The position numbers and the translations under genes were made by a program. DNA of 64,000 nt from Candidatus Thorarchaeota archaeon (GTDB lineage Archaea > Asgardarchaeota > Thorarchaeia > Thorarchaeales > Thorarchaeaceae): positions 70,527 to 134,526 of the forward strand of contig JBHLRP010000002.1 of assembly GCA_048882485.1 (NCBI GenBank). The letters run 5' to 3'. Of this stretch, positions 179 through 29,417 are shown piece by piece. Under the pieces are notes generated by a model. It ran no database searches, was not told the DNA's origin, and saw only the letters and a program-made list of their open reading frames with translations. Within the stretch, counting starts at the first letter, position 1, and each line of letters starts with the position of its first letter.

Positions 179-1147
179 TTACATTCGAACATAATCCACT
201 CTGTGACTATTGCCGCAGCTTGGACATGCATATTGATCAGGACCGACCCAGTCTATAGATTCCCATGACATAGGAGCGTTGCAGTGGTCACAGCGATTCT
301 TAATTACAGGCTTGACAAATACAGTTCCTGCACCAGCCTGTGCAGAGCTGACTTCCATTTCTACTTTTGTTTCCTGCGCTACTGGAGTTGCTACAGAAGC
401 TGAATCACTATAGGTGTATTGGGAAAGCGGATGTCTGGGATTGATATAATTGAATGGTCTGATTAGCCAGTCAAGATAGTCCTTGCCAAGGTCGTCCCAT
501 TCTCTTTGCTGCCACATCTGCAAGAGGTGGTCCTGCCGTGGAACCCTTCCTCTAACGTCAAACTCTCCAGAGGTTGCTTTAATCTTCAATCTATTCTTCC
601 GAGCCTCAAAGGTTTCAACCATATGGAGTGGAAACATGTACATCTTCTTCTTCCTATCATCAAAGATGTAGAGGCGATAGTTAGTCAGAATAAACGCGTC
701 AGGCCAGTAGGTGAATACAGCCTCTCCTCTTAGCCACGCAAATGTCGAATAGAAATGCCTTGAGAACCTTCGGTGGTAACCGATGGTAGTCCATCGATTA
801 TATGGATGATCAGGGTGAACGAATGGAACACCGCAGACCTCACAGAGCTTTCTCTGGTCGCCTGCATTGAGACTTTCAAATTCACGAAGCCCCAAGGCGC
901 CTCGTAGTTCCTCGCTTCGCGGCAAGGCTCCCATTACGTTGATTATTCCATTCACAACCTTGAACATAGCGGACCTCGGTGTGAGTTTGTACTCCTTTAT
1001 GATGTGAAGTGGAACACTGACAGTGGTGTTGGAGCCTCTATCGAACTGAGCCAGTCTGTAGTTGCTGATAACTGACTCAGCAGCTTGTGCTACAACACGT
1101 TCTCCTTCAATTGGTATATAGACCGGAGCGGACATCGGAACAATCAC
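179..1147 (-). CDS. Hypothetical protein with two PH/GRAM-like repeats and a C-terminal Zn ribbon
   Basis: Internal repeat GERVV..ISNYRL..VPLHII vs GEAVF..LTNYRL..FPLHMV; C-terminal CDHC...CPSC; start may be the Met of MSAPVY. Confidence 0.6.
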   Translation of the reverse strand: MIVPMSAPVYIPIEGERVVAQAAESVISNYRLAQFDRGSNTTVSVPLHIIKEYKLTPRSAMFKVVNGIINVMGALPRSEELRGALGLREFESLNAGDQRKLCEVCGVPFVHPDHPYNRWTTIGYHRRFSRHFYSTFAWLRGEAVFTYWPDAFILTNYRLYIFDDRKKKMYMFPLHMVETFEARKNRLKIKATSGEFDVRGRVPRQDHLLQMWQQREWDDLGKDYLDWLIRPFNYINPRHPLSQYTYSDSASVATPVAQETKVEMEVSSAQAGAGTVFVKPVIKNRCDHCNAPMSWESIDWVGPDQYACPSCGNSHRVDYVRM

Positions 1148-20978: not shown

Positions 20979-21653
20979 TCATTTTTCCCATGGGACCTCT
21001 GCAATGACCTCGTCATCTGCATACACATAGAGAATGTCATCACGAAGGAGCAATTTCAAATCGTAGTCGGCTCGAATTTCTCTTACTCTAATTGCTTTTC
21101 CTTCAATCATCAGGATTGAGTGCACGGTACCATCATAAATCGCAGTATCGTGCATCATCTTGAACAGCTCTCTCCTTTTAGATGGCAGAATTCTAAAGTC
21201 CTCAAGGAGCTGCTCAAGTACTCTTCCTTCATGGTCGTTGAGTAATTCCCTAATGCTTTGAAAGCCTAAGTAGCGGTCCTTCCCTTTTTCAATTACATGA
21301 TCCTTATACTTGTTGACAAATGCGCGTTCTACTGCTAGGTAGTGACCTAGACCACGGCTGATGGCATCCAAATCAGTCGCTTCTTCAGACGAATCGTGTC
21401 CTTTTGCAGGATGGCTGATTTCATGAGCCAGTAATCCGATTATCGCAGGTTCAGGCCAACCCATAACATCTTGATGGCATGTGATGTTAATTGCACCCAC
21501 ATCGCTCCATCTCACTTGTCCGTAGGATTTCAAAGCACCTGCACATGCTCTGATATTCCTGCCTGCTAGTTCGGGGTATGCATGTACTACGAGCCTGCGC
21601 ACCAACTTGCCAATGTCACTTGATTGTACTGGCACCTTAATCCCTTGATTCAA
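20979..21653 (-). CDS. Hypothetical zincin-like protein (HExxH)
   Basis: IIGLLAHEISH followed by EEATDLDAISRG, a minimal metallopeptidase-like pattern. Confidence 0.6.
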   Translation of the reverse strand: MNQGIKVPVQSSDIGKLVRRLVVHAYPELAGRNIRACAGALKSYGQVRWSDVGAINITCHQDVMGWPEPAIIGLLAHEISHPAKGHDSSEEATDLDAISRGLGHYLAVERAFVNKYKDHVIEKGKDRYLGFQSIRELLNDHEGRVLEQLLEDFRILPSKRRELFKMMHDTAIYDGTVHSILMIEGKAIRVREIRADYDLKLLLRDDILYVYADDEVIAEVPWEK

Positions 21654-21763: not shown

Positions 21764-22669
21764 ATCAGTCGGAAAAAATGGGGCAAGACAGCTGCAAAGA
21801 CAGAAAGAGTCGTCAGAGATGCCATTCTGAAGCCAGATGTAGAGGCCAATATAGACGAGTATCTTGCGAAAGTCCGCTCTGTAACCCAGTATGACCTTGC
21901 AAACCGATTTGGTGTTAGAATGAGTGTTGCGCGACAGATCCTCCGGCGGAAAGAATCAGATGGTGTTCTTGTTCCATACATTCGGGAGGGCGGCCTTGAG
22001 GTCTACACAACACCTGCTGAATTGGAGAAGCGAGAGTCAGAAGCCCCAATAATGATTGCAGATGCTCTTGAGGAGGTTGCCTCTTCTGTACCGAAAGCTG
22101 CAGTCATCACCGAGGAAATGGATGCAGAACTAATAGCAGCATCATCAGCAGGCAGTGTTGTGAAGCCCAGCAGGTTGGCGCGGCAGAGAAGAGAAGCAGG
22201 AGAGAAGAAGGAGGAGAAATCCAAAGCAAAACTTCCTGAAGTTATTGTTGAGCCACTAGTGGAGCCTGTTGAGATTCCGCCTCAGCCCGAGCCTGAAACA
22301 ACGCCCAAGCCAAAAGCCAAGCCGAAGAAGAAGGTCACAAAGAAGAAGGCTGAGGAAAAAGCCAAGCCTAAGAAGAAGGTCACAAAGAAGAAGGCCGAGG
22401 AAAAGGCCAAGCCTAAGAAGAAGGTCACGAAGAAGAAGGCCGAGGAAAAGGCCAAGCCTAAGAAGAAGGTCACGAAGAAGAAGGCCGAGGAAGAAGCTAA
22501 GCCTAAGAAGAAGGTCACGAAGAAAAAAGCCGAGGAGAAACCTAGGAAGACCACGGCTAAAAAGACTGAGGGCAAATCCACAGCTAAGAAGACTACTACA
22601 AAGAAGACCACGAAAAAAGTCGAAGAAAAGCCTAAGGCAAAGAAAACGACGAAGAAATCAGACAAGTGA
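21764..22669 (+). CDS. rps25e: 30S ribosomal protein eS25 with long acidic linker and Lys-rich repeat extension
   Basis: In frame upstream of the track ORF: SRKKWGKTAAK...VTQYDLANRFGVRMSVARQILR..ESDGVL...LEVYT, matching eS25 (KKKW...ITP..V.ERL.I.GSLAR..L...G.I...IYT); no in-frame ATG/GTG/TTG between stop 21704 and 21920. Confidence 0.8.
   Translation: MSRKKWGKTAAKTERVVRDAILKPDVEANIDEYLAKVRSVTQYDLANRFGVRMSVARQILRRKESDGVLVPYIREGGLEVYTTPAELEKRESEAPIMIADALEEVASSVPKAAVITEEMDAELIAASSAGSVVKPSRLARQRREAGEKKEEKSKAKLPEVIVEPLVEPVEIPPQPEPETTPKPKAKPKKKVTKKKAEEKAKPKKKVTKKKAEEKAKPKKKVTKKKAEEKAKPKKKVTKKKAEEEAKPKKKVTKKKAEEKPRKTTAKKTEGKSTAKKTTTKKTTKKVEEKPKAKKTTKKSDK
22316..22540 (+). repeat. Five tandem 45-bp coding repeats (AKPKKKVTKKKAEEK)
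   Basis: Units start at 22316, 22361, 22406, 22451 and 22496; differences mostly at synonymous positions. Confidence 0.95.
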
Positions 22670-22826: not shown

Positions 22827-23378
22827 CTACTTCAGACCTGCGATCTGACGATCAATCTCTTCAAGCTGGGTATCCAGCTCGGCTTCCTTGGATTTGTAAT
22901 CATCTTCTGGAATGTAGCCTCTCATGTAGTCAAATCGGAGATCTGTGAGTGACGCTTTTAATCGGTCCTTCTGCTGAAGCAGAAAATCTAGTTGGTCACT
23001 GCCCTCAGCAGCAACGGGTTCAGCAGCAGGTGCCGCAGCCGGTTCCGGAGCAGGCGCAGGGGCTGCTGCAGGAGTTGGCTCTGGCGTGGGCGTCGTTTCT
23101 GCTGATGGAGCTGGAGCTGGAGTGGGTTCAGCTACTGGTGCAGCTGCTGCTGGAGCAGCTGTCTTTACACTCTCCATTTCCTCCATGTTCTTTCTCAGAG
23201 TATCAATCTGATTTGCGATTTCCGTGAAGCTATCATTAATCGTTTTGTTAATTGCCGTCTTCATCTTGGCGAGGTTCTCTGCCAACTGATCGGCAAGCTT
23301 CTTGGTTTCTGCAACCTTCATAGCGTAGGTTTCGATTTCCTTCAGCTTTGTAGTTAATTCACCTATGTCAAAGGCCAT
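22827..23378 (-). CDS. Coiled-coil protein with Ala/Pro linker and C-terminal steadiness-box/CdvA-like helical hairpin
   Basis: N-terminal heptads, APAAAPVAEPTP linker, C-terminal LTDLRFDYMRGYIPEDDYKSKEAEL. Confidence 0.65.
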   Translation of the reverse strand: MAFDIGELTTKLKEIETYAMKVAETKKLADQLAENLAKMKTAINKTINDSFTEIANQIDTLRKNMEEMESVKTAAPAAAAPVAEPTPAPAPSAETTPTPEPTPAAAPAPAPEPAAAPAAEPVAAEGSDQLDFLLQQKDRLKASLTDLRFDYMRGYIPEDDYKSKEAELDTQLEEIDRQIAGLK

Positions 23379-23512
23379 GAAATGTCACCTTAGTATAGCC
23401 TACTATATCGATAGTGCTAGTGCATGGTTCTTAACCTTTGCCGTGGTGGATATTCCATTTAAAGCCCAAATTCAGGCAACTCTCCACCTACGGTGGCAAC
23501 TCTTGATACTCC

Positions 23513-24364
23513 TTATGCAGCCTTGGTTTCGGCTTTCCCCTCAAGAATTGCTTTGCGAATTATCTGAATCAACCGGTCTCTATATGAAATATCGATAGCG
23601 ACCAATTCGTAGGTTGGGATGCCAAGAATCTGTCCAACTCTCTCAGGTGTCAATGCGGTAGGCAGATCTTGCTTATTGGCAATGCCAATTACTTTCGCTT
23701 CAGGAACTTCGTCCTTTACCAGTGTGACCAGTTTCTTGCTTCGAAGGACATTCTCAAGAGTGCTGTCTGTGACAATCACTACGACTTGTGCATTCGCAAT
23801 CATTTTCGCCCATAAAATGCTAAATCTTGACTGACCGGCCAAATCCCAGAGCACAATGTTGGCGTTCTGAACTTCTTCCGGAAGCCGCTTAATGCTCACA
23901 CCAATCGTCGGATCGTGGACAAGAGGAAGTGTTTCGCCTCTTAGTAAATGCAGAGTTGTTGTCTTACCCACACCCGCGAAACCGAGTATCGCAACTTTGA
24001 CCATGGTTACAGCAATTTCATCCACTTTGGCATCGAATCCGTCCAAGGGCTGCTTGGCTGTGGCTAGGTTAGCAAAGTCCTTCATGAATGTTTCAACCAT
24101 TTGGGTCATCTTGTCTTCAATCTGTACTGAATCGTCTGCTTTATCAGCAACAAAGACGAAAGTGAAGAAGTCTCTCTGAGCGAAGAATATTCGAGAAATG
24201 GCTACGTTCATAAACTCAGTCTTTCCTTCAAGATCGACACTCCTAAGGAAATGGACAAGATTCACAAGAAACTCAACCAGACTTGCCTTTGAGTCACTCT
24301 TAGCATATTCTTTGGAGTAGAGAACGTTTCCTTCTTGACCCAAAATATATACACTTCGAATCAA
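23513..24364 (-). CDS. Longin-domain / small GTPase (Arf/Rab-like) fusion
   Basis: TTG start at 24364 after GGAGTGA gives MIRSVYILGQEGNVLYSKEY (longin-like); G1 GFAGVGKTT, G2 PTIG, G3 WDLAGQ, G4 NKQD. Confidence 0.88.
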   Translation of the reverse strand: MIRSVYILGQEGNVLYSKEYAKSDSKASLVEFLVNLVHFLRSVDLEGKTEFMNVAISRIFFAQRDFFTFVFVADKADDSVQIEDKMTQMVETFMKDFANLATAKQPLDGFDAKVDEIAVTMVKVAILGFAGVGKTTTLHLLRGETLPLVHDPTIGVSIKRLPEEVQNANIVLWDLAGQSRFSILWAKMIANAQVVVIVTDSTLENVLRSKKLVTLVKDEVPEAKVIGIANKQDLPTALTPERVGQILGIPTYELVAIDISYRDRLIQIIRKAILEGKAETKAA

Positions 24365-24365
24365 C

Positions 24366-25469
24366 TTACTCACTCCAAGTCTGCACAAGAAGCTCCAAAT
24401 ATCTTCTTGCGGTATCTGAACCAAGCTTTTTCTCTTCAATCTTTGTTGCGACTATCGGAAGAATATACTCCGGCATGAAGATTTCCATCTTTGGATTGGT
24501 TATTAGTGCCCAAACTCCTTCTTCCTCGAAATTTGCAACAATTCTTTCTGCTTCCATGGCCCATAACGCCTTCTGAACAACTTCATCAGGGAATGAGATT
24601 TCACTGGCAATTTGACCAAGACGAAGTGGCCCATTTCTTAGGCAGTCTAGAACTGCGTAGTTGATACTGTTTGCCATAATTCTGGCAATCTTCTCTCTAT
24701 CTTCTAGAATTGGCGAATTGGGATCAGTGACCGGCAAAGTGGGATTATAGCCCTTCGTTGGTGGGTCCGGAGAAAAGAAATTCTTCAGATACTCTTGATA
24801 TTGGGGCATTAAATTAGGATGAGCAACACTAGTAGCATTGAATGACTTAGTAGGTGGAGATCTGTGTGGGAACACATCTTTCAACAGAAAAGCTGTTTCC
24901 AACTTACCGATGATTTCCACCGCGACGATTCCTGAATCCATCAGGGGCGTCATAGCTTCCCTCAAGTCCACATTGTCACTCTGAATTTGATTCTTCAGCC
25001 ACATGGACAGTTTGGCAGTACTCTCAACACCCTCCGAGTGGAGCCTTTCCAAAAGAAGGGCCGAGGAAGGTGTCATGTAAATAGCGGCCGCCTTTTGCTC
25101 GTCATCGACAACAGGCATGGAGCTTTTCTTAGTCAAGACTTCTTCAATATCTAATGATTCTGGATCCGCAATCATGAGTTCCAGCATGAATCTGCCCATC
25201 CCTTTGAGTTCATGCGAGATATCCGCCAGAACATCATCCTCGTTTAGTACATAGCACACTGTCCAGCCTGGAAATGTTTCCATTGCAAAGGAGGCAATTC
25301 TCATCCCTTCAATCTCAGAATCTCTGATTTCCTCTTCTTTTCCTTGCTGACGCTCAAAATAGACGAGATTGAGCATGGTTTCCGTCAATGCAAGAGAAGA
25401 GGGATGACGCTTCTTCACAAGGAAACCATGAAAATCATCTAATTGAATGATGAAGGCGGCTTCTGGCAT
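24366..25469 (-). CDS. Longin/uDENN-like N-terminal domain plus winged-helix domains (NPRL2-like architecture)
   Basis: MPEAAFIIQLDDFHGFLVKKRHP N-terminus; C-terminal VLDCLRNGPLRLGQIASEISFPDEVVQKALWAMEAERIV wHTH; ATG at 25469. Confidence 0.6.
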   Translation of the reverse strand: MPEAAFIIQLDDFHGFLVKKRHPSSLALTETMLNLVYFERQQGKEEEIRDSEIEGMRIASFAMETFPGWTVCYVLNEDDVLADISHELKGMGRFMLELMIADPESLDIEEVLTKKSSMPVVDDEQKAAAIYMTPSSALLLERLHSEGVESTAKLSMWLKNQIQSDNVDLREAMTPLMDSGIVAVEIIGKLETAFLLKDVFPHRSPPTKSFNATSVAHPNLMPQYQEYLKNFFSPDPPTKGYNPTLPVTDPNSPILEDREKIARIMANSINYAVLDCLRNGPLRLGQIASEISFPDEVVQKALWAMEAERIVANFEEEGVWALITNPKMEIFMPEYILPIVATKIEEKKLGSDTARRYLELLVQTWSE

Positions 25470-25535
25470 TTGTCGTTCCCACCTCGGACAGACAATCATT
25501 GCATAAAAGAATGACCGTTATGTATTCCTTGCGCC

Positions 25536-25922
25536 CTATTCTAAATGCTCAATGCACTGGATGTTTCCATTTTCATCCAGGATCCAGCAATTCTCGCATA
25601 CAGAAATCCCACAGATTGCGCATATTCCGATATGATGATTCAGTCCTTCGAACTTGCGGACTCTACCATTCACTGAATGGATATCGCAGTACATGCTACC
25701 GCAACGATTGCATGACAGAATAGCATCATTTCTACAGAGCACACATGAAGATTTTCCCTGGGCTTGAATGAGTTTGCCCTCTCGTGCATAGCCGGGGCAG
25801 GCTTTAACTTCACAGAATCCTATTCCTTTGTAGCTGCCGCAATGGGTGCAGTAAGGGTCAAGGACTGATTTGTTTCTCTTCATTGCCTTTTGGTGCTCCA
25901 GTTCTTGAGAAGGCGCTCTCAC
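25536..25922 (-). CDS. Cys/His-rich multi-zinc-finger protein
   Basis: CTHC..C..C, CVLC..CNRC..YCDIH, CAIC..VCENC..CIEH. Confidence 0.7.
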   Translation of the reverse strand: MRAPSQELEHQKAMKRNKSVLDPYCTHCGSYKGIGFCEVKACPGYAREGKLIQAQGKSSCVLCRNDAILSCNRCGSMYCDIHSVNGRVRKFEGLNHHIGICAICGISVCENCWILDENGNIQCIEHLE

Positions 25923-25989
25923 AGACTGCAGAATGAGGTGTTAGAAAGGATGAAAAGGATTTCTTTGCCAACGAAAGGAGTGGACCCCA

Positions 25990-28293
25990 ATGGACATTGA
26001 GAAGCACACTCTCATCATCCCGACAACTGCAGCCCGTAGTATCCAGTTAGCGGGAGGTCCACCAATGGAGCAGGCTATTCCGGAGGATTATGTTCTTACA
26101 TCAATGGTAATGCGCGCTCTTGAGGCTCGAAATGGCCAGGAACTGGAGTTTGTCCTTAAGACATACTATCCCATAATGGTCGTGCAGTCTTCAATACCCA
26201 ATTTCTGCTTCTTAATTGAGCTACTCGGAATTAGCTCTGGGAGTTTGCTGCCCATGACTGGGAATGATATCTCAGGCATTCAGAACTGCATTGAATCATC
26301 TGAAACCCCAAACCAACTCCAAAAGTGCATTGAAGATACACACGACTTGGTTGCCTCCCTGATGAAGAGCAATGAGATGACCATTCCAGGATTGCTCTCC
26401 GGAGAGCAGGCTGATGGGATTTCAGACCTTATGGATTGGCCAATAAGTGATGTTCTGGAGGAATTTGGTCTTCTTTTGCCAGAGGCCATAAGCAGCAAAG
26501 AAGTATCTCGCTTGTTTGACACTCTATTCGAAACCTCCCGTGTCCTTGGTTCGGTAAATGATCTTCTCTCAAAACTGCTGGATATGATTCATCAGAAAAT
26601 CATGAATATTGTTGGTGAGAGAAAATCTGAGTCATCTCACAAGACCAACAGACTGCAGCAACGAATAGAGTTCTTGAAAAGAGAAATCGAGATGCTCGAT
26701 TCTCGTTTGGAACAAAGGCGCGATGCCGCAGAATTGATGCATGAAAGAAAAGCAAGAGCTGATGCGCTAAAGAGGGATGAGGCACGGCTCGAGGAATTGC
26801 TTGGGCGCACTCGCGACACCTCAAAGAAGCTGCTGGAACAAGAAGAGCTTCTGCGCAATGAGATTAATGCAATGAGTTCCGCAGTTCGAAAGCAAAGGGA
26901 GCTGCTCGATAATTACCTTGTACCACTTAGAGGGATTGAAATTCAGGACAAATCATCACTTCTTCTAATACCCTTTGTCATGGCTGGTTTCTCTAAGAAG
27001 GGGCGCTTGAAAATCGTGGTATATCCACCTTCTCGACTAAAGGATGAGCGACAAAAAGTTGGGCGCTTGCGGGAATTTGCTGACGTCTTCGTACCTTCTT
27101 CAGATGCGATGAGTTCCTTAGCAAGCATAATCAATAGCCGTGCAAACAGAGATGTGACCCTGAGGAAACATATCAGAGAACTCTCAAAAGAGATGAGTCT
27201 TCTAGCTTCAAAACGCGCCCGCAAGTTGCTTCGTGAAGGGACTCAAGCTCTTGTAGCGGATGGCTTGATCAAGAGGTCAATGATGCAGGAGCTGGACTCA
27301 ATTCTCGATGGGATTCCTGAGCAAAGCATCAAAGCCAGGAGAGTGAAAAGGTCCAAAGTCTTTCCTGCTGGAGACGCCGCTTGTAGGGTTAGATTCCACG
27401 TATATGACGATTCAGGAAATCCAGTGCCTGGAGCTGCTCTTGAGTTGGGTGCTTTTACCGCGAGTTCTGATTCCAAGGGAGTGATAAAAGCCTCCTTTCC
27501 AAAGAGCAATTATGAGGGACGAGTTAGTGCCAGAGGCTATCGTGAGCGCCAGTTGGAGTTCACGCTCAATACGCCAGGAAACATCGTCGTTCCGATAGTA
27601 CTTAGCCCGCTTTCAAAAGAAGAGAAATTGGATAAAGAGCTGGATGTCCTCATTGATCGTGCAAACAGAATTGAACGTATTCGGGAACGGCTCGGAGAAG
27701 CATTTGAGAAACAAGGGGCTACACTTCTGAAAATTCCAGCATACAGAAGTGCGTTGGTCGAATTGCTATCTGAGCTAGGATATGATGCGGAAGCTTGGAT
27801 TGCTCAGGCAAGAAGGAAACGAGGCATGGTCAAAGGTCTGCTCAAACGAGACGATCGAATTGATGGTGTGAGAAGAGACATACTACGACTTGCTGAGGAG
27901 TCCAGGGAGTCTGGTGGTGTGATGCTCTTCTCCAAACTGCTTTTGCGTCTTGATAATATGGGTTGGGCGACTAGTTCAGATGAAGCGGAAGCCATTATCA
28001 GGCACATGTCAAAGGAAGGTCTCATTGAAGGACTTTCCACCCTCGAGAGTGGAGCTGTGATTGTGAAATTCATTCCAGTTGCTTTGACTGATGACCCTCA
28101 GCAGCTCATGAGTCTCGCAGCAGAAGGTGATGGAAGTCTGACTATTGAGGCAGCGATTGTGAAGCTTGGTTGGACTGAAGAGCGCGTCAAGAACGCATTG
28201 GATCTGCTCGTTGAAGAGGGTGTCGCCAAGATGCAAAGGAGCTATTCTAAGAGTACACAATATTGGTTCCCCGGGCTTCGGGGAAAGAAATAA
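25990..28293 (+). CDS. Coiled-coil + Ig-like (carboxypeptidase-regulatory-like) + ESCRT-II Vps22/EAP30-like domain protein
   Basis: Central heptads; VYDDSGNPVPGA...SDSKG...VSARGY beta-sandwich; C-terminal GGVM...IPVALTDD...LGWTEERVKNALDLLVEEG...YWFPG resembles EAP30 (GGLI...VPAELNMD...LKWETERARQVLEHLLKEG...YWLPA). Confidence 0.8.
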   Translation: MDIEKHTLIIPTTAARSIQLAGGPPMEQAIPEDYVLTSMVMRALEARNGQELEFVLKTYYPIMVVQSSIPNFCFLIELLGISSGSLLPMTGNDISGIQNCIESSETPNQLQKCIEDTHDLVASLMKSNEMTIPGLLSGEQADGISDLMDWPISDVLEEFGLLLPEAISSKEVSRLFDTLFETSRVLGSVNDLLSKLLDMIHQKIMNIVGERKSESSHKTNRLQQRIEFLKREIEMLDSRLEQRRDAAELMHERKARADALKRDEARLEELLGRTRDTSKKLLEQEELLRNEINAMSSAVRKQRELLDNYLVPLRGIEIQDKSSLLLIPFVMAGFSKKGRLKIVVYPPSRLKDERQKVGRLREFADVFVPSSDAMSSLASIINSRANRDVTLRKHIRELSKEMSLLASKRARKLLREGTQALVADGLIKRSMMQELDSILDGIPEQSIKARRVKRSKVFPAGDAACRVRFHVYDDSGNPVPGAALELGAFTASSDSKGVIKASFPKSNYEGRVSARGYRERQLEFTLNTPGNIVVPIVLSPLSKEEKLDKELDVLIDRANRIERIRERLGEAFEKQGATLLKIPAYRSALVELLSELGYDAEAWIAQARRKRGMVKGLLKRDDRIDGVRRDILRLAEESRESGGVMLFSKLLLRLDNMGWATSSDEAEAIIRHMSKEGLIEGLSTLESGAVIVKFIPVALTDDPQQLMSLAAEGDGSLTIEAAIVKLGWTEERVKNALDLLVEEGVAKMQRSYSKSTQYWFPGLRGKK

Positions 28294-29123: not shown

Positions 29124-29417
29124 TTAATCCCAATCGTCGTCGAGGAATTCATCCTCCTCTTCGAGTTCACGCTCAGGAGGCAAATCGCTATCCTCGTCAA
29201 AATCGTCTTCATCGTCATCCTCAAATAGAAATGTGTCAGGGTCGACTTCTTCTTCACTCTCTTCAAGTGCATCGGCTCGCTTTGCCTTCTTCTTGAGATG
29301 GCTTGCCATACATAGATTGTCCAAGGGATCGTAATGTTCGCATTCTGGGCAACACTCCCCTTTGTGATCGCAGGTATAGAATGCCCCGCATATCTTGCAA
29401 CACTTCAGTTCCGACAC
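29124..29417 (-). CDS. Small Cys-rich protein with acidic tail ending DDDWD
   Basis: CCKIC..C...CCPEC...C N-terminal half, then an Asp/Glu-rich disordered tail. Confidence 0.7.
   Translation of the reverse strand: MSELKCCKICGAFYTCDHKGECCPECEHYDPLDNLCMASHLKKKAKRADALEESEEEVDPDTFLFEDDDEDDFDEDSDLPPERELEEEDEFLDDDWD

Follow-up and report, generated by a model that had tools for sequence, protein, structure and literature searches.

NPRL2 and NPRL3 (Npr2 and Npr3 of the yeast SEACIT complex) are subunits of GATOR1 and act as a longin-domain GAP for RagA/Gtr1; they pair through their longin domains, as do Mon1-Ccz1 and C9orf72-SMCR8. In the eukaryotic SRP receptor, the longin protein SRX acts together with SRbeta, an Arf-like GTPase. 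The component families of the locus described here have already been published. Longin-GTPase fusions are known in Lokiarchaeon MK-D1 and in Asgard genomes generally (Liu et al. 2020, bioRxiv 10.1101/2020.10.19.343400; Tran et al. 2024, PMC10933270), and "NPRL2-like" proteins occur in most Thor MAGs (Liu et al. 2020). The fixed operon partners of the longin-GTPase, encoded here by genes C and A, were not described in the literature searched.

Positions 22827-28293 of the window, a stretch of 64,000 nucleotides from a Candidatus Thorarchaeota genome, contain five genes, A to E (Table 1). We consider it fairly probable (about 0.6) that they form two units which are neighbours in most Thorarchaeia, a (D)-C-B-A operon encoding a GTPase switch and a gene for a Vps22 paralogue, E. 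The first-pass annotation had described genes for a Zn finger, a longin plus wHTH protein, a longin-GTPase and a coiled coil on the minus strand, with a Vps22 fusion about 70 nt away in the divergent direction, and all five ORFs were found where it had placed them, with start codons slightly corrected. The 1 nt reported between the second and third genes was also found, since the TTG of B starts 1 nt past the last base of the C stop codon (24366); B orthologues start at the equivalent position with ATG, GTG or TTG. Orthologue comparison placed the conserved start of C at the ATG at 25469 (MPEAAF...) and not at 25499. D is more likely to start at the ATG at 25883, judging from its orthologues, which makes the D/E spacer 106 nt long; a GTG start would leave 67 nt. 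The E ATG is preceded, at 8 nt, by an SD-like GGAGTG. The B-A spacer carries a short hairpin (CCACC-gta-GGTGG) and TATA-like A/T stretches, and A may have its own promoter there. No Vps4, ESCRT-III or Vps25 gene was found within the five-gene cluster, which differs in this from the canonical locus as had been noted; the standard Vps22-Vps25-Vps4-ESCRT-III locus of the same genome lies on contig C11.

Table 1. Genes, spacers and protein parts of the cluster (window positions; residues for protein parts)
Feature	Position	Strand	Description	Basis
A	22827-23378	-	183 aa	ORF
A parts			N-terminal ~70-aa coiled coil, ~55-aa Ala/Pro/Glu-rich linker, invariant C-terminal helical hairpin (LTDLRFDYMRGYIPE..Y.)	
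B-A spacer	23379-23512	-	134 nt	sequence inspection
B	23513-24364	-	283 aa	ORF, TTG start
B domain	about residues 1-100		longin-like	
B domain	about residues 120-283		Arf-family-like small GTPase	
C	24366-25469	-	367 aa	ORF, ATG start
C domain	residues 1-101		longin	
C domain	residues 123-204		winged helix 1	
C part			helical linker	
C domain	residues 254-331		winged helix 2	
C part			C-terminal helices	
D	25536-25922	-	Cys-rich, B-box-like Zn-finger protein, 115-128 aa	ORF
D/E divergent intergenic region	25923-25989	.	67 nt	sequence inspection
E	25990-28293	+	767 aa	ORF
E domain	residues 1-165 and 322-445		alpha/beta domain	AF2 model
E insertion	residues 169-309		inserted ~70-residue antiparallel coiled-coil hairpin	AF2 model
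E domain	residues 464-538		transthyretin-like beta-sandwich	matches carboxypeptidase D transthyretin-like domain, Z 13.4
E domain	residues 543-759		Vps22-type helix and two winged helices	fold and sequence match

B is an active-looking Arf-family-like GTPase with a longin domain in place of the N-terminal amphipathic helix. It scored 69.9 bits against Pfam Arf (cut-off 22.3), its closest solved structures were Arl1 and Arf1 (E 2e-15), and its longin region gave a weak longin-type match (Clat_adaptor_s in Pfam). The motifs GVGKTT, PTIG, WDLAGQ and NKQD are kept across seven families, and B identity among Thor genera is 77-91%. B shares the Arf-type motifs WDLAGQ and NKQD with Arf/Arl GTPases but has neither the N-terminal amphipathic helix nor Gly2. 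B resembles SRX-SRbeta in that it unites a longin and an Arf-like GTPase in one chain, but it matched Pfam SRPRB weakly (16 bits) and the SRP context is absent.

The AF2 model of C (pLDDT 94.6, pTM 0.91) showed a longin domain and two winged helices. Its top whole-chain Foldseek matches were the NPRL3/NPRL2 chains of GATOR1 (E 1e-4), along with Npr2/Npr3, and the best VIA-align match of its longin domain was NPRL2 (8fw5_B, Z 10.2); the C family was found in 148 of the 201 Asgard genomes searched. C has the same domain order as NPRL2/NPRL3, an N-terminal longin followed by winged-helix-type C-terminal domains, shares their N-terminal signature W/F-D/E...LG......YPE, and is likewise genetically paired with a small GTPase. 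This GTPase, however, is Arf-like with an N-terminal longin, whereas in Rag a roadblock domain stands at the C-terminus. A DEPDC5-like partner was not seen, and the second longin would come from B itself. C gave no match to NPR2/NPR3 in the Pfam search. In the alignment, the longin domain of the C family lacks a conserved arginine, so there is no indication of a GAP mechanism with an arginine finger of the NPRL2 type.

C and B are translationally coupled, and all Thor orthologues have the 1-nt junction between them. Three Asgard classes, Thorarchaeia, Jordarchaeia and Freyarchaeia, share the order C, B, A but not its flanks, C being adjacent to B in five Jordarchaeia and five Freyarchaeia genomes; the pair is also kept in Hermodarchaeia, in convergent orientation. 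The coupling and this order support the GTPase switch and regulator which the first-pass annotation had proposed. This genome and family f12 also have a second, paralogous C'-B' pair. The B tree placed Thor B as sister to the "next-to-C" GTPases of families f7, f19 and f9 (support 93/87); the C tree was unresolved, and a co-duplication of C and B is therefore unproven. Most of the expanded C paralogues of f9 (Hermodarchaeia) have no GTPase neighbour. In G025, a genome of a sister family, the C orthologue lies on another contig than B-A, unlinked from B and E.

The C-terminal motif of A is invariant in the orthologue alignment (A2). A had been read as ending in a steadiness box or CdvA-like domain, and an ESCRT-I-like component had been suggested, but this label is not supported: A reached 22 bits against Pfam CdvA (cut-off 30), its match to GvpG was equally weak and likewise sub-threshold, and the CdvA model also matches bacteria. 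Among 13 members, the motif L..L...Y..G.I.E..Y...E.L matched GvpG in ten and CdvA in seven, all below threshold. No steadiness-box or specific CdvA relationship of the hairpin was detectable, and no ESCRT-I-like component is left in the cluster. A also lacks the PRC barrel and ESCRT-III-binding tail of CdvA and the gas-vesicle context of GvpG; its matches to GvpG/SHOCT-type and CdvA coiled-coil hairpins reflect a generic helix-turn-helix hairpin. In Jordarchaeia and Freyarchaeia, a gene of 106-120 aa follows the B orthologues, and its product is probably homologous to the hairpin (phmmer E about 1e-4; hhalign 75%, E 2.4e-5); such a gene lies immediately 3' of B in all six loci examined there. 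D reached 21 bits against a Pfam ANCHR-like B-box (cut-off 27) and was sub-threshold in its G025 orthologue too.

E is a second Vps22 (ESCRT-II), a paralogue with a true Vps22-type C-terminus, encoded away from the standard ESCRT locus. The C-terminus matched human Vps22 both by fold (Foldseek, 3cuq_A, E 8e-8; also 1u5t_A) and by sequence (SNF8, phmmer against PDB, E 3e-5), which bears out the Vps22-domain fusion noticed earlier, and the G025 orthologue scored 70 bits on Pfam EAP30, above threshold. The AF2 model (pLDDT 83) indicated that residues ~543-759 fold like Vps22/SNF8/EAP30 (Asgard cog.002769; Makarova et al. 2024, PMC10936438), but E has three times the length. Its N-terminal module has an unmatched fold, it also contains a coiled-coil hairpin and a transthyretin-like domain, and it is encoded apart from Vps25, Vps4 and ESCRT-III. 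E occurs almost exclusively in the Thor order, in some members of which it was not found.

The operon and E may form a single GTPase-controlled ESCRT machine, in which B, C and A as a switch would recruit or gate E towards Vps25/ESCRT-III for ESCRT-II-like membrane remodelling; we regard this as doubtful. It would suit Thorarchaeota, which are reported to be without ubiquitin (Hatano et al. 2022, PMC9192718), and E still adjoins the operon across a divergent spacer of 67-106 nt in most Thor genomes. In G025, B-A and D/E are within 3 kb of each other though the flanks differ, and an Arf-like GTPase gene lies 3 kb from the E homologue of G029. In Odin-like genomes, a longin-GTPase related to B, from the same subfamily, is found inside ESCRT loci: in G026 it is two genes away from the ESCRT-III pair within a full Ub-ESCRT locus, and in G077 it is co-directional, 1 kb 5' of a 601-aa Vps36-like gene. 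These two, each a reciprocal best hit of B, suggest a possible real ESCRT link, but in the tree these GTPases form a separate clade and are not clear B orthologues. E is nevertheless separable from the operon. Its N-terminal part was not found in 10 of the 81 Thor-order genomes searched, and several of the genomes without detected E are 95-99% complete and yet keep C-B. Among those without detected E, B is retained in g25 (96-99% complete), G042, G041 and G019; C is adjacent in G052, and the G019 locus reads YdjM / D-C-B-A with no E. No Vps22-like gene was found within about 7 kb of C-B-A in Jordarchaeia and Freyarchaeia. The conserved partners of E elsewhere are different: in G025 and G029, which belong to two other families, the gene after E encodes a coiled coil and the next one a 1140-aa GCS2-like ligase; in this genome the pair of coiled-coil and 1146-aa genes persists 62 kb away. 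The gene order is conserved in Thor relatives, but the housekeeping flanks are conserved too within family f1, so local synteny there reflects inherited collinearity and is uninformative alone. What ties E to the GTPase operon is their adjacency alone, and this within a single order. Of the GTPase-ESCRT module first proposed, the switch and the Vps22 paralogue stand, while the ESCRT-I part and a link of operon to E beyond adjacency do not.

It is improbable that there is no functional meaning beyond C-B, with A, D and E as unrelated neighbours kept by slow rearrangement in one family. D is indeed variably present, in some Thor genera only and often absent, and synteny across nine genera extends equally to the flanking genes for NTP-transferase, eS25, YdjM and GluRS; but the A hairpin gene also follows B in Jordarchaeia and Freyarchaeia with different flanks, and B-A adjacency survives in G025 though C has moved. 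To our knowledge, the winged helices of ESCRT-II, GATOR1 and PCI type generally do not bind DNA, and those at the C-terminus of NPRL2/NPRL3 are protein-protein modules. We consider it very unlikely that C is mainly a DNA-binding regulator of the winged-helix type whose longin serves as a sensor, and the cluster a transcription factor with a GTPase co-regulator outside membrane trafficking: the second winged helix of C is similar to repressors of the ArsR/SmtB type (Z 8-9; PagR E 0.006), several C-family members weakly match HTH Pfam models and NPRL2-like longins fused to two-component signalling domains are known (Liu et al. 2020), but every HTH sequence match is below threshold and the whole-chain fold matches are NPRL2/NPRL3 and Npr2/Npr3 instead.

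With two neighbouring units as the preferred reading, C and B would pair via their longin domains, by analogy with NPRL2-NPRL3, Mon1-Ccz1 and C9orf72-SMCR8, and C would set or read the nucleotide state of B as a GEF, a GAP or a platform. A, with its coiled coil and hairpin, would be an adaptor or effector. The Vps22 winged helices of E, a protein with a novel N-terminal module, would provide a docking scaffold; in other lineages E has a coiled-coil protein and a giant GCS2-like ligase as its conserved neighbours instead of the GTPase operon.

The GTPase switch and regulator proposed by the first-pass annotation were well supported by comparative genomics, and the pair extends to a triad composed of C (an NPRL2-like protein), B (a longin-GTPase) and A (a hairpin protein). 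Together with D, a Zn finger, and E, a long Vps22 paralogue, these genes form the five-gene cluster of the window, in which all five ORFs were present as drawn earlier and the coordinates were refined for the starts of B, C and D. The gap from the stop codon of C to the TTG start of B is exactly 1 nt, and the B orthologues carry ATG, GTG or TTG at the identical start position. The probable start of D is the ATG at 25883, which would widen the D/E spacer from 67 to 106 nt. The host genome G000 is thorarchaeotal and 90.5% complete.

Coordinates of the cluster genes in the window and of related loci (L numbers are locus extracts with their own coordinates)
Feature	Coordinates	Strand	Remarks
A	22827-23378	-	ORF in window
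B	23513-24364	-	ORF in window; TTG start
C	24366-25469	-	ORF; start ATG 25469 set by orthologue alignment
D	25536-25922	-	ORF; start more likely ATG 25883
E	25990-28293	+	ORF in window
E homologue, coiled coil and ~1140-aa gene	L020:8462-14990		G025
E homologue, coiled coil and ~1140-aa gene	L021:4446-10944		G029
Coiled coil and 1146-aa pair	L107:8900-13022		G000, contig C2, ~30.9-35.0 kb, outside window
Longin-Arf-like GTPase at edge of or inside standard Ub-ESCRT locus	L105:914-8032		G026
Longin-Arf-like GTPase at edge of or inside standard Ub-ESCRT locus	L106:738-12489		G077

The Pfam Arf model matched B at 69.9 bits (cut-off 22.3), and the nearest solved structures are Arl1 and Arf1 (E 2e-15). 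The motifs GVGKTT, PTIG, WDLAGQ and NKQDLP showed no variation in 13 B orthologues of seven families, and B shares with the Arf family the Arf-type WDxGGQ and NKxD within the G1-G5 motif set. B therefore looks catalytically competent, as judged from these invariant motifs. Arf proteins begin with an amphipathic (myristoylated) helix, whereas B has a longin-like domain in that place, with a weak longin-type match (Clat_adaptor_s) over residues 1 to ~100. Longin-GTPase architectures are known from MK-D1 (Tran et al. 2024, PMC10933270), and longin-fused GTPases have been described (Liu et al. 2020, bioRxiv 10.1101/2020.10.19.343400). The Hermodarchaeota orthologue of B (L103:7251-8279, L104:7690-8781) has a ~60-aa helical C-terminal extension, and its gene is convergent to C, not downstream of it.

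The partner C falls into no Pfam family; it gave no match to the Pfam NPR2 and NPR3 models at E<=0.1, and none of 65 family members did so at E<=0.01. Its AF2 model, built from the 65-sequence alignment (pLDDT 94.6, pTM 0.91), predicts, from the N-terminus on, a longin domain, two winged helices joined by a helical linker, and helices at the C-terminus, so that C would have the same N-terminal longin and winged-helix-like C-terminal domains along the chain as NPRL2 and NPRL3. The top whole-chain Foldseek matches were GATOR1 NPRL3, NPRL2 and yeast Npr2/3 (9o5a_C, 9o5d_D, 8fw5_C; E 1e-4 to 8e-4, probability 0.94-0.99), with a global TM to the GATOR1 chains of just ~0.2, which we attribute to differing domain orientations. 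For the longin domain of C, VIA-align ranked 8fw5_B (NPRL2) first with Z 10.2 and rmsd 2.8 over 115 aa, but this rank is indecisive because the next rows, a Loki longin (Z 9.5) and Npr2/3 (Z 9.0), lie within ~1 Z. The catalytic arginine finger of NPRL2 is Arg78 in the longin domain. No invariant or nearly invariant Arg was found in residues 1-116 of C, either in the 65-sequence alignment or in its B-paired subset, and an arginine-finger GAP of the NPRL2 type is thus not indicated by these alignments. NPRL2 and NPRL3 act with DEPDC5 on a Rag-type GTPase dimer, whereas the GTPase paired with C is Arf-like with an N-terminal longin; a DEP/DEPDC5-like gene was not found in the locus. The C family was present in 148 of the 201 Asgard genomes searched, some of them with at least 10 matches. 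'NPRL2-like' proteins were reported in most Thor MAGs (Liu et al. 2020), and the NPRL2-like and longin-GTPase families are therefore already known from that study and from Tran et al. (2024); the Vps22 paralogues are likewise in the literature. In other Asgard genomes, giant proteins of 1300-2660 aa (C-family proteins P0059, P0062, P0074, P0101 and P0107; G151:C61:25067-26143) end in the complete C module of a longin and two winged helices. A 'Rosetta-stone' fusion of C with a GTPase was sought in ten longer C-family proteins, none of which had a GTPase domain and one of which had TPR repeats.

Beyond the Thorarchaeia, B-like GTPases (E<=1e-30) were found in 133 of 201 Asgard genomes. C->B pairs 9-45 nt apart occur in five genomes of Jordarchaeia (family f7) and five of Freyarchaeia/Freyarchaeota (f19), the Hermodarchaeota (f9) have a convergent C-> <-B pair, family f12 shows a C'->B->C arrangement, and contig C6 of the host genome carries a second pair, C'-B'. 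The ML tree of B-like proteins places Thor B as sister to the 'next-to-C' GTPases of f7, f19 and f9 with support of 93/87, and groups the f12 pair with the C6 paralogue of the host. Comparing the C and B trees for congruence, as a sign of co-duplication, was set aside, the C tree being unresolved with a long Thor C branch. In all six Jord/Frey loci examined, a 106-120-aa gene stands directly downstream of B and encodes the hairpin motif L..LD.DFM.GKI as in Thor A (phmmer E ~1e-4; profile-profile probability 75%, E 2.4e-5). The presence of this hairpin gene 3' of B makes C->B->A a three-gene unit in at least three classes. Outside the Thor order, neither D-like nor E-like genes were found beside B, and the Jord/Frey hairpin gene was the only A-like one. 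A small gene also adjoins longin-GTPase genes in several lineages (L065:5239-5598 on contig C6 of the host, L066:10536-10874, L105:6650-7120, L106:11252-11800); the L105 copy has an Ssb-like OB fold by Pfam, and the other copies are OB-like by eye only.

The end of A had been labelled steadiness-box/CdvA-like, which would make A an ESCRT-I-like component, and this label found no support. In A, a coiled coil and a Pro/Ala-rich linker precede the invariant hairpin LTDLRFDYMRGYIPE..Y. The Pfam CdvA model reached 22 bits (cut-off 30), GvpG fits about equally, and the CdvA model matches 7 of 14 control genomes, bacteria among them. The Vps23_core, VPS28 and Mod_r models gave no Pfam match to A, and the hairpin profile, run against the PDB, retrieved no ESCRT-I chain at E<=10; these results together leave the label unsupported. 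The Vps23_core search of the genomes had zero matches anywhere, control genomes included, and the full-length A profile matched only low-complexity Pro/Ala linkers in the PDB. CdvA is characterized by a PRC barrel, a specific coiled coil and an ESCRT-III-binding tail, whereas A scores below the CdvA cut-off, and neither a PRC barrel nor any other Pfam match was found on its N-terminal half. A 93-aa ORF next to the standard Vps22 (L026:8611-8892) was considered as a free-standing steadiness-box protein and rejected as a membrane-type peptide. D is Cys-rich with a sub-threshold B-box match in Pfam.

E, modelled by AF2 at pLDDT 83, carries at residues ~543-759 a Vps22-like region, which matched human Vps22 (3cuq_A, Foldseek E 8e-8) as well as 2zme_A and 1u5t_A; phmmer against the PDB also linked the C-terminus to Vps22 (E 3e-5). 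The Pfam EAP30 score is 20.4 bits, below the cut-off of 26.8, for E, and a passing 70 bits for the orthologue in G025, a genome of the sister family f2. Like ESCRT-II Vps22/EAP30, the Vps22-like region of E has the helical N-terminal segment and tandem winged helices. A transthyretin-like sandwich spans residues 464-538 (Z 13.4), and the N-terminal region is modelled as an alpha/beta domain with an inserted coiled-coil hairpin of ~70 residues, for which no convincing fold match was found in the PDB and only hypothetical archaeal look-alikes in the Atlas. The standard Vps22 (257 aa) is clustered with Vps25, Vps4 and Snf7 on contig C11 of the host, which makes E a second Vps22-domain protein. 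ESCRT-II Vps22 binds Vps25 and is encoded with Vps25, Vps4 and ESCRT-III, whereas none of these genes was found near E. Among 201 genomes, an E-like N-terminus outside the Thor order was found only in G029 (family f6; G029 query). Downstream of the E homologue, G025 and G029 each carry a coiled-coil gene of 214-235 aa and then a gene of ~1140 aa, whose product has an N-terminal match to GCS2/YbdK-type carboxylate-amine ligases (21.7-34.8 bits, cut-off 21). The host has kept this pair (233 aa and 1146 aa) on the contig of E, ~62 kb away, and this company suggests that E was formerly in another unit or cooperates with it as well. That ligase superfamily also includes the Pup ligases. By this kinship, a protein-tagging role beside a Vps22-like scaffold is conceivable in the Thorarchaeota, which were reported to be without ubiquitin (Hatano et al. 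2022, PMC9192718).

The order of the cluster is kept across nine Thor genera as NTP-transferase / 224-aa gene / eS25 / A-B-C-(D) <-> E / YdjM / 97-aa gene / GluRS, but the housekeeping flanks are equally kept, and conservation of order alone is therefore no proof of functional linkage. D is absent from many Thor genera. What links the GTPase cluster to the Vps22 gene is adjacency, which is restricted to the Thor lineage and broken in several genomes. Of 81 order-level genomes, 10 gave no match to the 460 N-terminal residues of E, among them all three g25 genomes (96-99% complete), G042 (95%) and G041 (98%). These genomes and G019 (97% complete), where the gene order is YdjM, D, C, B, A and E is missing, all retain B, and C adjoins B in G052. 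In G025, B-A, eS25, the 224-aa gene and D<->E all lie within 6 kb, and the C orthologue is on another contig, adjoining the NTP-transferase gene. The evidence here says that the GTPase operon and E are separable units. Among the neighbours, the 224-aa protein (window 20979-21653, minus strand) has no Pfam family and an HExxH-like motif, LAHEISHP; in G020, G023 and G025, too, it is encoded close to the cluster. A Lys-rich 249-aa ORF (window 21920-22669, plus strand) contains near-identical KAKPKKKVTKKKAEE repeats and has a homologue near B-A in G025 (L020:6173-6721). The 97-aa protein (window 29124-29417, minus strand) has two CxxC pairs, a strongly acidic tail and no family match; every Thor relative examined has its gene beside the YdjM-like membrane gene.

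A possible GTPase-ESCRT link comes from two Odin-like genomes. G026 (f3, 1.4 Mb) has the order UEV-Vps23, Vps28, Vps22, Vps25, Vps4, two Snf7, Ssb-like OB and longin-GTPase, and in G077 (f21) the longin-GTPase is co-directional and 1 kb upstream of a Vps36-like gene of 601 aa (Zn-finger/GLUE-like/EAP30). Both GTPases are reciprocal best matches of B; strict orthology was nevertheless rejected, because in the tree their clade is separate from that of B within the same subfamily, and they are taken as subfamily relatives of B only. As the two families share local synteny, they were counted as one lineage-level observation, which is suggestive only. On the boldest reading, GTPase input would replace the ubiquitin/ESCRT-I input to ESCRT-II in Thorarchaeia, giving an Arf-type-GTPase-gated prokaryotic ESCRT pathway; GTP-bound B, with C as its controller and A as its tether, would recruit E, which would direct Vps25/ESCRT-III to a membrane site. 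We consider this pathway unlikely, at roughly 15%. If it were true, the longin-GTPase of the Odin-like ESCRT loci would be a remnant of an ancient partnership between GTPases and ESCRT, and if E were truly tied to the switch, a GTPase would for the first time be seen to feed an ESCRT-II-like scaffold in a prokaryote.

In eukaryotes, the longin-domain complexes GATOR1, folliculin, C9orf72-SMCR8 and Mon1-Ccz1 control small GTPases at membranes. The C-B-A set could be expressed directly and assayed for binding, GAP or GEF activity. The locus offers a minimal, genetically matched set, an Arf-like GTPase, an NPRL2-shaped partner and a small putative adaptor, found together in at least three Asgard classes.
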